Of a DNA stretch of 64,000 nt, positions 35,938 to 45,266 are shown piece by piece (the first letter of the stretch is position 1; every line of letters begins with the position of its first letter). The notes under the pieces were generated by a model, which saw only the letters and a list, made by a program, of their open reading frames with translations, made no database searches and was not told where the DNA came from. The position numbers and the translations under genes were made by a program. The DNA comes from Candidatus Bathyarchaeia archaeon. Lineage in GTDB: Archaea > Thermoproteota > Bathyarchaeia > 40CM-2-53-6. The stretch lies in NCBI GenBank assembly GCA_049513715.1, contig JBEKVV010000001.1:704001-768000 (forward strand). The letters run 5' to 3'.

Positions 35938-36015
35938 GGGCGGGTAGCCTAGCCTGGATAGGGCACAGGCCTCCGGAGCCTGAGGTCGGGGGTTCGAATC
36001 CCTCCCCGCCCGCCA
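35938..36015 (+). tRNA. tRNA-Arg(CCG), intronless, CCA encoded
   Basis: Acceptor GGGCGGG/CCCGCCC, anticodon arm CAGGC-CTCCGGA-GCCTG, T loop TTCGAAT. Confidence 0.97.
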
Positions 36016-42582: not shown

Positions 42583-42873
42583 TCACTCGTGGGGTTCACT
42601 GGATAGGAACTTCACAAGTTTGCCTGCTCCAAGCTTTTCCGCTACGATCTTACGCTCCTCTTCGTTGAGGGGTTTGTACTTGAGGTGCGTATCGGTAACG
42701 CCAACATATCGGCCTGCAACAACGTAGGCATTAGCGTTCTTCTCTTTGTAGATGGTGATTGGCTTGTGGACGGCCGCGGGGTCAGTTCCGGCGTAGAGGT
42801 AGGTCGTCGAGTCTTCAAACTTCAGCTTATCCTCAATCTTGAGGAGCACAAGCTGCGAGTCGTCAGCTTTCAT
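42583..42873 (-). CDS. hypothetical protein
   Basis: 96-aa ATG ORF with protein-like composition filling the gap. Confidence 0.6.
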   Translation of the reverse strand: MKADDSQLVLLKIEDKLKFEDSTTYLYAGTDPAAVHKPITIYKEKNANAYVVAGRYVGVTDTHLKYKPLNEEERKIVAEKLGAGKLVKFLSSEPHE

Positions 42874-42941
42874 GGAGCAGCCAGCCTCATACCCATACCT
42901 AAAACCCTTGCGGGCCAGTGTGGTGGCAGCGAAGTTTTAGT

Positions 42942-43087
42942 TGGAGCCGGGGATGGGAATTGAACCCACATCAGCGAACGCTGCTTCTATACTGCGGGTT
43001 GCGGCAAGCTTGTATCTACTGCAGCCCGCCGCCTGAACCGTTCGGCCTTCGGTGATCCTTAGGCAAGGCCAAAGGACCAACCCCGGC
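42942..43087 (-). tRNA. tRNA-Cys(GCA) with three introns: 43079-43048 (8/9), 43018-43000 (37/38), 42988-42970 (48/49); CCA encoded
   Basis: Spliced sequence GCCGGGG TG GCCG AACGGTTC AGGC G GCGGG CTGCAGA CCCGC AGTAT GTGGG TTCAATT CCCAT CCCCGGC T CCA; each insert is bounded by a BHB-type structure. Confidence 0.88.
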
Positions 43088-43164
43088 ATTCGCCCCGGCA
43101 ATAGAACCGTTCACACACAAATCTCTAATCAACCTTTCCAATGTATAGAACTCGTGTACTAGCC

Positions 43165-43467
43165 ATGGCTTCTGACCAGCGTGAGCATAATCAACTGTTT
43201 TTCAGACTTTGTTCTGACCACCTTTCCATCGAAGCCATTCCGAAAGGACACGTTAGGATGAATTTCGACCAAATCAAAGAAGCCCCTCTCCCGAATTATG
43301 AGCTGCTAATGTGGACTCCGCAATTTGTGGTCCTCAGAAACATGAAGGGGCACGAGATTACTGTGAGAAAAGACGGCCGAATGGTCATCCGCAAGGCTGT
43401 TTCTGAATCCGCCGCCAGAACCTCGGCAACTGAAACTTGGGACATCCTGCTAAGCAGAGATAGGTAA
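43165..43467 (+). CDS. stand-alone homolog of the C-terminal domain of the nearby MoeB/ThiF protein
   Basis: WTPQFVVLRNMKGHEITVRKDGRMVIR versus TTPMLIVFDYEGHEVSVFKKGRMLIK. Confidence 0.7.
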   Translation: MASDQREHNQLFFRLCSDHLSIEAIPKGHVRMNFDQIKEAPLPNYELLMWTPQFVVLRNMKGHEITVRKDGRMVIRKAVSESAARTSATETWDILLSRDR

Positions 43468-43471
43468 CCTA

Positions 43472-44167
43472 TCAGACCGTAATTACCCGGGCATTTTCAA
43501 TGTCTCGTCGCACCATAGCCTCAAGATCCAAAGCTCCCTCAACCTCGGCAAGCCTGTCACGTCTGGCAGCGGTGCTCGGGTTGCTTGTGGGAACGCCGCA
43601 AGTTGCGACTCCTGGGCGAATTGACGTCTCATATGTTCCAATTGCTTCCGCGTATCGAACAATCTGCTGCTTGTTCATGCCCACTAATGGCCTGAGTACG
43701 GATATTTTGTTCAAAACGCAGTCTGCTGAAGTGATGTTCTGGAGTGTTTGGCTGGCCTTTTGTCCTATAGCGTCACCTGTTACTATGGCGGTGCAGTTTT
43801 CCTTCGTCGCTATTTGTTCTGCAACTCGCAGCATAATGCGTCGAGAGAGAACACATGCATACTTCTCTGGGCACTTGGAAACAATTTCCTGTAAGTCAGG
43901 TGAGTGGGACACTAGATATACGGGAACATCATGAGCGTCTAGATTGCCGCAAACCTTTCTGATTGTTTCGAGGGCTATGCTCTCAGCGGCCTGGTCGCAG
44001 AGTGGGTAATTGTCAAAGTACGCAAAGACCGGGTCGATACCCTTCCTGATTAGGAGCCAAGCTGCTACTGGGGAATCGATTCCGCCTGAGACGAGGAAGA
44101 GCGCGCGGCCTCGGAGCCTGAGGTCCGACTGGGGTCTTCTGATCGGTTTAGGTGAATTAAGAGTCAA
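43472..44167 (-). CDS. ThiI-like PP-loop sulfurtransferase lacking NFLD/THUMP domains
   Basis: SGGIDSPVAAW, TGDAIGQKASQTLQN, LRPLVG..IGTYETS; only 231 aa. Confidence 0.88.
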   Translation of the reverse strand: MTLNSPKPIRRPQSDLRLRGRALFLVSGGIDSPVAAWLLIRKGIDPVFAYFDNYPLCDQAAESIALETIRKVCGNLDAHDVPVYLVSHSPDLQEIVSKCPEKYACVLSRRIMLRVAEQIATKENCTAIVTGDAIGQKASQTLQNITSADCVLNKISVLRPLVGMNKQQIVRYAEAIGTYETSIRPGVATCGVPTSNPSTAARRDRLAEVEGALDLEAMVRRDIENARVITV

Positions 44168-44173
44168 GCTGCA

Positions 44174-45208
44174 TCATTTCGTCTCAATGATTTTCGTAAT
44201 ATGGCGGTAGACTTCTAGGGCTTCGTCTTCGGTGCCCACGTTCTTGATGAGCATTCTCCCCTTCTTGAAAACGCTCACTTCATGCCCCTCGTAATCAAAT
44301 ACGATGAGCATTGGCGTAGTCAGGAGAACCTTATGGGTTTTCCCAATTGATTTCGTCAGCGCATCCAAGTTTAGCGACATAGGTAGCTCGGGATTTACAT
44401 TGGCTGTGTTGGATCCGCACAGCCAAGCTAGCCTTTTGGCGATTTGCATGGGCTTGCGGGCTTTTATTTGGCAAACCTCGCAGTCCGGCCTGATGCTTAA
44501 TTCAACGGTTCTGAATTCTGACTGGGCGAAATCGAAGACCATTAGTTTAGCCTTTGAGTGAGGTTCGATTCCCACGAGAACCTTTACCGTTTCCATGGCC
44601 TGAATTGCACCCACGATGCCTGTTGTGGCTCCAAGAACTCCGCGGATTTCGCATGTGGGCAAGTCCGCATCGTCCAATCCGGGTAGGATGCATTCGAGGC
44701 ATGGGGTCTCTGGGCTTCTGAAGACTGCTACGTTTCCTTCCATTCCAATCGCACCACCAAACACGAAAGGAATCTTGTGCTCCACACAATAGCGGTTCAC
44801 CACGTACCTTGTTCGCATGTTGTCCAAGCCGTCCACTACACAGTCAGAGTCAGCGATTATGGAGCGGATGTTGTCGGGTCCCAGGTTCTCTGGGAATGGC
44901 TCCGTTCTGATTTCAGGGTTGACTTCTTTGATCCGTCGGGCCGCCGCCTCGACTTTGGGGTAGCGTAGATCGTTTAGTGAGTATAGGGCCTGACGGTGCA
45001 GGTTGTTGAACTCAACAGTGTCTTGGTCAACAAGTTTCAACGTCCCCACTCCAGCCAAGGCGAGAAATAGCGCCGAAATGCTGCCTAAGCCGCCCAAGCC
45101 GACGATTGTGATCTTGGAACCCCGTAGCTTCTCCTGGCCAAGCTTCCCAAGCTCACTCAGGATTGTCTGGCGGCTGTAAAATTCTGAACTGTTGAACTGC
45201 ATGCTCAT
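44174..45208 (-). CDS. HesA/MoeB/ThiF family E1-like adenylyltransferase
   Basis: YSRQ, GLGGLG, NLHRQ, CLEC..CEVC Zn site, catalytic PTC. Confidence 0.93.
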   Translation of the reverse strand: MSMQFNSSEFYSRQTILSELGKLGQEKLRGSKITIVGLGGLGSISALFLALAGVGTLKLVDQDTVEFNNLHRQALYSLNDLRYPKVEAAARRIKEVNPEIRTEPFPENLGPDNIRSIIADSDCVVDGLDNMRTRYVVNRYCVEHKIPFVFGGAIGMEGNVAVFRSPETPCLECILPGLDDADLPTCEIRGVLGATTGIVGAIQAMETVKVLVGIEPHSKAKLMVFDFAQSEFRTVELSIRPDCEVCQIKARKPMQIAKRLAWLCGSNTANVNPELPMSLNLDALTKSIGKTHKVLLTTPMLIVFDYEGHEVSVFKKGRMLIKNVGTEDEALEVYRHITKIIETK

Positions 45209-45266
45209 TGACGGTCGGTAAGATAGATGGCAGAAGGAGGCTTTCAGCATATGGGCGCAGCTTGGT

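Follow-up and report, generated by a model that had tools for sequence, protein, structure and literature searches.

Introduction

Archaeal transfer RNA (tRNA) genes with up to three introns, some of them at non-canonical positions and with relaxed splice motifs, have been described in the Thermoproteales (PMC4033280, PMC4390854, PMC4090602, PMC8450103); here and below, literature is cited for the searched parts of each source. The non-canonical positions listed in a review, 3/4, 20/21, 22/23, 25/26, 29/30, 30/31, 45/46, 53/54, 56/57, 59/60 "etc.", include neither 8/9 nor 48/49 (PMC4090602). Here we describe a gene for tRNA-Cys(GCA) with three introns, located after positions 8, 37 and 48 of the mature tRNA, in a 64,000-nucleotide (nt) stretch of DNA from a Bathyarchaeia genome (G000:C1:704001-768000), referred to in the following as the window. 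The genome, G000, is a metagenome-assembled genome (MAG) of 2.79 Mb in 11 contigs with 51% G+C, an estimated completeness of 99.4% and an estimated contamination of 8.8%.

The gene resembles Pyrobaculum calidifontis tRNA-Glu(UUC) and P. islandicum tRNA-Pro(UGG) in having three introns, one of which is canonical (PMC4390854, PMC4033280, PMC8450103). It also shares with the Thermoproteales genes splice motifs made partly from exon bases, an apparent two-subunit splicing endonuclease and a genome in which most tRNA genes are interrupted. An earlier note on this DNA had pointed out that multi-intron tRNAs occur in Thermoproteales, which the literature bears out, but the host in this case belongs to the Bathyarchaeia and not to the Thermoproteales. 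Unlike the hyperthermophilic Thermoproteales, this host comes from soil and peat, and the 8/9 and 48/49 positions set its gene apart. A further difference is that the leader here repeats the 5′ acceptor strand; this conserved copy accompanies the 8/9 intron and is not mentioned in the searched parts of the Thermoproteales papers.

Two other described cases are comparable. In a published tRNA-intron case from another phylum, as here, annotation programs miss many introns and compact relatives reveal them, and the introns sit at sites compatible with the splice motif and were gained repeatedly; the searched parts of that source do not mention a leader helper. The nucleomorph of Guillardia theta has a tRNA-Cys(GCA) gene, the same isoacceptor, also with three introns (PMC4090602). 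Unlike the present gene, that one is eukaryotic, with very short introns and an unknown mode of splicing, and we see no evolutionary link between the two. A partial literature search for tRNA introns in Bathyarchaeota or Bathyarchaeia found none. A search for introns at 8/9 or 48/49 returned only papers on tRNA modification, the tables of SPLITSdb and GtRNAdb lying outside this search, and in the literature that was searched no leader copy of the acceptor strand is described in connection with a bulge-helix-bulge (BHB) intron.

A tRNA-Cys(GCA) gene with three introns

The gene lies on the minus strand and comprises 146 nt, including an encoded CCA. It starts with a G/C-rich 7-mer followed by U and ends with the complementary 7-mer, U and CCA. 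Removing three inserts by script (32 nt after position 8, 19 nt after position 37 and 19 nt after position 48) left 76 nt, which form a tRNA-Cys(GCA) with U73 and CCA. ARAGORN called this product as tRNA-Cys(gca), with a 7-bp acceptor stem, 5-bp anticodon and T stems and a 5-nt variable loop. The GCA anticodon and the discriminator U73 are identity elements for cysteinyl-tRNA synthetase (CysRS), and both are present in the spliced product and in all 38 distinct orthologs described below.

The unspliced DNA of the gene gave no tRNA call with ARAGORN, with or without the -i option. Over the whole window, ARAGORN and Rfam at its gathering threshold found a single tRNA, an intron-free tRNA-Arg(CCG) at 35938-36015, and missed tRNA-Cys. 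Permissive Rfam settings over positions 42700-43300 returned four weak matches, without calling a tRNA.

The gene was recovered by DNA search from 32 of 41 genomes, a set made up of G000 and 40 relatives; 19 of the 22 genomes in the same genus are among the 32. This search supplied 31 loci (L001-L031). A collection-wide pattern anchored on the 3′ end of intron 1 and on exon 2 added 27 stretches; many of these come from repeat genomes, and the pattern selects for intron 1. With L019 left out because of a run of N, 57 loci were parsed, yielding 38 distinct sequences.

The three introns occupy identical sites in all members of the genus and in two other genera of the family. Other intron combinations were found outside this group: L029 and L043, from one family, have only the 8/9 and 37/38 introns; L022, L024 and L025, from two families, have only the 37/38 and 48/49 introns; and L026-L028, L030 and L031 have only the 37/38 intron. 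In the intron-lacking orthologs, which belong to other families of the same order, the DNA is contiguous across exactly the predicted 8/9 and 48/49 joins. Exon 1 is identical in all 38 distinct orthologs and the other exons vary at few bases, while the introns turn over in length and sequence with their BHB geometry retained.

The earlier note had proposed that three inserts must be removed to obtain a standard cloverleaf. This is borne out by the ARAGORN call on the script-spliced product and, for the 8/9 and 48/49 joins, by the orthologs that lack these introns. The sequence comparison thus indicates that the locus is a real and very probably functional three-intron tRNA-Cys(GCA) gene.

Splice motifs of the introns

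The BHB motif consists of two 3-nt bulges on opposite strands with a 4-bp central helix between them, and cleavage follows the second base of each bulge. Intron 3 conforms to it strictly: its central helix (CAGU/GCUG) is fully paired, its bulges are AU-A and AU-G (the hyphen marks the predicted cut), and its outer helix and intron stem comprise 6 and 3 bp, respectively. In this genome, introns 1 and 2 share this geometry with three of the four central pairs formed. In intron 1 the central helix CGGG/ACCG contains a G.A mismatch and is accompanied by bulges GU-U and AA-G and a 7-bp intron hairpin; in intron 2 the central helix CUGC/GCCG contains a U.C mismatch. The helices, bulges and mismatches that the earlier note had read in the three introns are all present in the sequence.

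The motifs are conserved while the introns are not. All four pairs of the central helix are present in each of the 31 orthologs with intron 3 (12-26 nt long; 30 distinct sequences), where the outer helix has 5-6 bp and each bulge 3 nt. In the 30 orthologs with intron 1 (16-33 nt; 24 distinct sequences), the central helix has three of four pairs, with the G6.A mismatch in all 30, and the outer helix has 2-3 pairs. The stem of intron 1 varies from 2 to 7 bp and changes on both sides, with GC, AU and GU found at its second pair. Intron 2 is 11-34 nt long in the 38 orthologs, with 28 distinct sequences.

A central helix of at least three pairs together with at least two stem pairs was observed in 30 of 30 orthologs for intron 1, 14 of 38 for intron 2 and 30 of 31 for intron 3, compared with 3.3%, 1.4% and 1.7% of shuffled introns, respectively. 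The ortholog figures are descriptive and not probabilities, as the orthologs are related and not independent. The pairing of the motifs exceeds chance.

At intron 3, an AU repeat at both intron ends means that cuts at 46/47, 47/48 and 48/49 would give the same product in this genome. We place the cut at 48/49 because the orthologous introns end in AG, AC or AA, and because of the bulge geometry.

A leader copy of the 5′ acceptor strand

An exact 7-nt copy of the 5′ acceptor strand is present in the leader, 12 to 6 bases upstream of the mature 5′ end. All 30 distinct orthologs that have the 8/9 intron carry a leader copy of at least 6 bases, and none of the 8 that lack the intron does; in the subset that was not selected for the intron (L001-L031), the counts were 22 of 22 and 0 of 8. 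The spacer that follows the copy is 4-13 nt long and unconserved in sequence, and the leader further upstream is unalignable between families. In families outside genus g1, the last base of the spacer pairs with position 12, bringing the outer helix of the 8/9 motif to 3 bp.

The association extends to other tRNAs. We scanned G000 for intact T arms with an acceptor strand behind them and the complement of that strand no more than 400 nt upstream, a scan that is blind to interrupted T arms. It gave 59 candidates, 29 of which were tRNA-like with an encoded CCA. A leader copy was found in 3 of these 29 genes, exactly the three that have an intron after position 8 or 9; the chance of this coincidence is 1 in 3654 by hand calculation.

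The second of the three genes encodes tRNA-Phe(GAA) (C2:195041-195178, with its leader to 195195, minus strand; L061/L063) and has an intron after U8 and a 7-nt copy 17 nt upstream. Copy and intron were both present in 30 of 30 orthologs, covering all families sampled in the order; 29 of these were parsed, and in L067 the parser mistook the upstream copy for the exon. The central helix of this motif has a C5.A mismatch in 26 orthologs and is fully paired in four. The third gene encodes a class II tRNA (C5:220120-220321, with its leader to 220343, minus strand; L062/L093); its intron, about 32 nt long, follows position 9, and its 6-nt copy lies 22 nt upstream. Copy and intron occur together in 12 of its orthologs, and two orthologs lack the intron: the copy is kept in L109 and decayed in L101. 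Another class II tRNA gene, from a different Bathyarchaeia family (L123; G059:C24:6720-6990, minus strand), has an 8/9 intron that ends like the one in tRNA-Cys. Between its leader 7-mer and the acceptor strand there is a single difference, a C-to-U change that still allows pairing with the 3′ strand as U.G.

Pairing between the copy and the 3′ acceptor strand forms a nested helix around the whole body of the precursor and leaves exon 1 free, whereas the reverse arrangement would be a pseudoknot. The copy, and not exon 1, paired with the 3′ strand in 21 of 30 free minimum-energy folds and in 26 of 30 when the 8/9 motif was enforced. The cost of forming the 8/9 motif, calculated as the nearest-neighbour energy with the motif forced, was 15.2 kcal/mol without the leader and 8.2 kcal/mol with the native leader (means of 30). 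We consider it somewhat more probable than its alternatives taken together that the leader copy helps the 8/9 motif to form by holding the 3′ acceptor strand. The case for such a helper is built on conservation and association, because the model fails to single out the native sequence.

Several points weigh against a helper role. With shuffled leaders the 8/9 motif cost 10.3 kcal/mol, compared with 8.2 for the native leader, and with the 7-nt copy reversed it cost 8.1, the native version being cheaper in only 10 of 30 cases. In the model, any G-rich leader can hold the C-rich 3′ strand, and the calculated energies make the helper plausible and no more. The intron-less class II ortholog L109 retains its leader copy. 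The acceptor sequences are invariant within each tRNA, which leaves almost no test by covariation, and the related genomes are non-independent samples.

The same thermodynamic controls, in which native and reversed copies are not told apart, and the copy retained in L109 would fit a neutral origin, in which the copy arose as a by-product of the 8/9 intron, through a small duplication or as the scar of an integrating element, and plays no part in splicing. This is possible but doubtful. Whereas the 7-mer persists, the spacer differs between orthologs in sequence and in length (4-13 nt), and the leader further upstream has diverged completely between families; the 7-mer also tracks the acceptor sequence in each of three unrelated tRNAs. 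It is missing from all eight tRNA-Cys orthologs without the intron and has decayed in the second intron-less class II ortholog, L101, while the C-to-U variant in L123 preserves pairing with the 3′ strand. In addition, seven bases with no element between them are far shorter than an attachment-site repeat.

Three other roles for the copy were considered and rejected: a generic promoter element, since its sequence follows the acceptor of each tRNA; a true exon 1, since the next base is mostly not U; and a partner of the intron, since that pairing would require a pseudoknot.

Upstream of the leader copy, at a distance of 31-33 nt, begins an A/T-rich box that is conserved and reads TTTATTAGAG in most members of the genus. 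In L024 and L025, which lack intron 1, the box is instead about 30 nt from the mature 5′ end. Archaeal promoters follow a spacing rule between the TATA box and the start of transcription, and the position of the box therefore suggests that transcription starts at or just before the copy.

In using sequence outside the mature tRNA to fold a precursor for the endonuclease, the helper that we propose resembles the split tRNAs of Nanoarchaeum equitans (PMC4090602). There, the flanking sequences pair in trans as the splice motif itself, unlike the leader here, which would act in cis by occupying the 3′ acceptor strand. The spare-strand arrangement is found in three unrelated tRNAs of this genome and is conserved across an order of Bathyarchaeia. 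We lean towards the view that introns directly behind the acceptor stem (8/9 and 9/10) persist only with a spare 5′ strand encoded in cis in the leader and a promoter shifted upstream, which would amount to an undescribed general rule for archaeal pre-tRNAs.

Refolding of the precursor and order of splicing

The 37/38 motif fits the cloverleaf. The other two motifs do not, since the one at 8/9 takes up acceptor bases 1-6 together with D-stem bases 10-11, and the one at 48/49 draws on bases 38-46 and 49-55 as well as on the final base of intron 2; for both, the precursor must refold. Bases 38-43 belong to the motifs of both intron 2 and intron 3, and one molecule can therefore form only one of these two motifs at a time.

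Motif costs were calculated in the full precursor and in six partly spliced intermediates (means of 28 orthologs). In all forms of the precursor, the intron 3 motif cost 5.0-5.8, the intron 1 motif 8.4-8.8 and the intron 2 motif 8.6-9.7 kcal/mol. The intron 3 motif cost 5.1 kcal/mol in the full precursor versus 5.8 after removal of intron 2, and the intron 2 motif 8.7 versus 9.7 after removal of intron 3. Since the costs are approximately equal whichever intron is already gone, the model gives no ground for a fixed order.

The earlier note had argued that competition between the 48/49 and 37/38 motifs implies ordered splicing. The competition is real, as the shared bases prevent the two motifs from coexisting, but an obligatory order finds no support in the modelled costs. 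A strict order, in which intron 2 or intron 3 must leave before the motif of the other can form, does have a precedent, as some multi-intron tRNAs need one intron to be removed before a second motif forms (PMC8450103). In this gene we regard it as rather unlikely: besides the nearly unchanged costs, G37 can stand in for the last A of intron 2 opposite U55 once intron 2 is gone. Given this substitution and the flat costs, either order of splicing looks possible through refolding.

The 37/38 junction

Intron 2 is absent from no ortholog, so that the 37/38 join relies on the motif rule. An A follows the intron, and a cut shifted by one, at 36/37, would place A37 instead of G37 in the product and still leave a 7-nt anticodon loop. 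Such a shift is very unlikely, however, because it costs the 4-bp helix pairing in this genome (by hand check on the sequence), while the 37/38 register gives three or four pairs in 36 of 38 orthologs with variable partner bases. The partner of U33 is C in 16, A in 15, G in 6 and U in one of the 38, and 45% of orthologs, versus 1.3% of shuffles, have a fully paired central helix.

In this genome the 37/38 motif is especially costly in the model, at 13.7-16.9 kcal/mol. The high cost is due to a competing 10-bp helix that exon bases 24-33 can form with the 3′ part of intron 2 (window 43000-43047, minus strand). Nine bases of this stretch are kept in most of the genus, more than the 4-bp helix requires.

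The tRNA set of the genome

The earlier note had suggested checking whether the genome has another tRNA-Cys. None was found by any of three approaches: ARAGORN with -i gave 33 calls on the genome, many implausible and none of them Cys; the Rfam tRNA model gave 18 matches; and blastn-short with each exon matched this locus alone above noise. The genome has two full-length CysRS genes (G000:C1:655255-656148 and C7:39440-40321; 386 and 324 bits) versus this one tRNA-Cys gene; the second may be a paralog or may stem from the estimated 8.8% contamination.

Only one of the 29 genes recovered by the T-arm scan has an uninterrupted length (75 nt). The other 28 are 89-202 nt long and are counted as intron-bearing, and heavy interruption is therefore the rule here. 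Despite the estimated completeness of 99.4%, only 18 loci pass the threshold of the Rfam tRNA model.

That the locus is a decaying pseudogene, with cysteine decoded through another gene that is unassembled or unrecognised, is the least probable alternative and deserves hardly any weight: a MAG of 11 contigs with 8.8% estimated contamination, a scan confined to uninterrupted T arms and a surplus CysRS gene would leave room for it, but the exons are nearly invariant across an order of archaea while the introns turn over, the tRNA-Cys identity features are all intact, the same three-intron gene occurs in 19 of 22 genus genomes, and no further copy of any exon exists in a genome of such completeness.

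Splicing enzymes and proposed processing

The genome encodes two splicing endonuclease paralogs, each with both tRNA-intron-endonuclease Pfam domains, and one gene for the ligase RtcB. The 186-residue paralog (G000:C1; L059:1462-2022) aligns over its full length with the solved subunits 3p1z_B (E 2.5e-41), 3ajv_B and 2cv8_A, which are annotated only as "tRNA-splicing endonuclease" and which we take to be Aeropyrum pernix and Sulfolobus proteins. It keeps the Tyr/His/Lys triad, the C-terminal Trp and a Lys at the equivalent of K44 in the Crenarchaea-specific loop. The 192-residue paralog (L060:1474-2052) lacks the His, as would be expected of a structural beta subunit. By sequence, the two form a two-subunit (alpha-beta) endonuclease with the crenarchaeal specificity loop.

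In the (alpha-beta)2 endonuclease of A. pernix, the Crenarchaea-specific loop and K44 confer broad specificity for non-canonical and relaxed motifs (PMC3241643, Hirata et al.). The catalytic subunit described here resembles that enzyme in its triad, Trp and loop Lys, a comparison made from sequence alone. By analogy, an enzyme that keeps loop and triad could cut mismatched motifs outside the anticodon loop.

We propose that the gene is transcribed into a precursor of about 160 nt from which proteins splice out the introns that follow positions 8, 37 and 48. With adjoining exon bases, each of the three introns would fold into a BHB, strict at 48/49 and relaxed at 8/9 and 37/38. The alpha-beta endonuclease would cut within both 3-nt bulges and RtcB would join the exons. 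Most likely, the leader copy would pair with the 3′ acceptor strand, freeing the real 5′ strand for the 8/9 motif, and the leader would be removed later, at maturation of the 5′ end.

Three observations count against this account. The energy model makes none of the three motifs the minimum-energy fold, at costs of 5-9 kcal/mol; the 8/9 motif is relaxed, with its mismatch in every ortholog that has the intron; and none of the 24 sequencing runs listed as containing the stretch is on record as RNA, so that splicing and the joins are predictions. Nevertheless, taken as a whole, a single functional gene with three protein-spliced introns, refolding of the precursor and, less certainly, a leader helper is the best explanation of the data, and one in which we have high confidence.

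Host lineage, distribution and gene neighbourhood

The host belongs to a soil and peat lineage of Bathyarchaeia, outside the Thermoproteales. The same gene occurs in 27 records, 24 of them named Bathyarchaeota or Bathyarchaeia, one "Crenarchaeota archaeon" and two with bacterial names; the 24 sequencing runs mentioned above are wetland and peat metagenomes. The two records with bacterial titles (L048 and L057; Acidoferrum and a Methylomirabilota MAG) carry this archaeal gene and are likely mis-binned or mislabelled.

A loose, class-wide pattern for 8/9 introns matched 54 of 251 genomes, many of them spuriously. When the matched strings were read, 27 proved to be the Cys gene, all in families f1, f6 and f10. 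A version of the pattern that included the leader copy matched 15 of 251 genomes; this is an undercount and was not used, as the gap of at least 12 nt excluded the 16-17-nt introns of genera g2 and g3. Four extra pattern matches were examined and comprised one coding region, one class II tRNA and two stretches left unassigned.

A conserved stretch in other Bathyarchaeia families (L125 and L126; G047:C73 and G088:C4) has a start like exon 1, a small hairpin and a piece like exon 2. No T arm is present within 190 nt of it.

A ThiI-family gene (231 residues, PF02568, E 3.4e-54) and a ThiF-family gene (358 residues) lie directly upstream of the tRNA gene on the same strand (window 43472-45250, minus). 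ThiI makes 4-thiouridine at tRNA position 8. The proximity of this gene to a tRNA with an 8/9 intron is probably a coincidence. The features of the locus are listed in Table 1.

Table 1. Features of the tRNA-Cys(GCA) locus in window coordinates.
Feature	Position	Strand	Basis or remark
Whole tRNA-Cys(GCA) gene: four exons, three introns, discriminator U, CCA (42942-42944)	42942..43087	-	ARAGORN on script-spliced product
Exon 1, positions 1-8 (5′ acceptor strand and U8)	43080..43087	-	Identical in 38/38 distinct orthologs; joined to exon 2 in the 8 without intron 1
Intron 1, 32 nt, between positions 8 and 9, relaxed BHB	43048..43079	-	Motif kept in 30/30 orthologs
Exon 2, positions 9-37 (D arm, 5′ anticodon stem, anticodon GCA, G37)	43019..43047	-	At least 6 variants in 38 orthologs, 1-4 bases apart
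Intron 2, 19 nt, canonical 37/38	43000..43018	-	Present in 38/38 orthologs
Exon 3, positions 38-48 (3′ anticodon stem, 5-nt variable loop)	42989..42999	-	Contiguous with exon 4 in L026-L031 and L043 (no intron 3)
Intron 3, 19 nt, between positions 48 and 49, strict BHB	42970..42988	-	Central helix fully paired in 31/31 orthologs
Exon 4, positions 49-76 (T arm, 3′ acceptor strand, U73, CCA)	42942..42969	-	Script-spliced product
Leader copy of 5′ acceptor strand, 7 nt, identical to positions 1-7; proposed surrogate strand	43093..43099	-	Tracks intron 1
Purine-rich spacer between leader copy and mature 5′ end, 5 nt	43088..43092	-	Sequence unconserved
A/T-rich box, putative TATA element	43123..43132	-	Assigned from position only

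Implications

Genes of this kind are already known; the lineage and the intron positions are new, and the leader strand may be a new piece of mechanism. Extreme interruption of tRNA genes, a feature of hot-spring Thermoproteales and lately of Asgard archaea, also marks mesophilic Bathyarchaeia of soil and peat. Standard finders detect less than half of the expected tRNA set here, and MAG annotations of this abundant group consequently under-report tRNAs. With every combination of the 8/9 and 48/49 introns present among related families, the gene is a clean comparative system in which to date the gain and loss of introns. The leader helper, if true, would explain how an intron can exist whose splice signal competes with the strongest helix of the tRNA, and the leader copy would then provide a simple sequence rule that intron finders could use.

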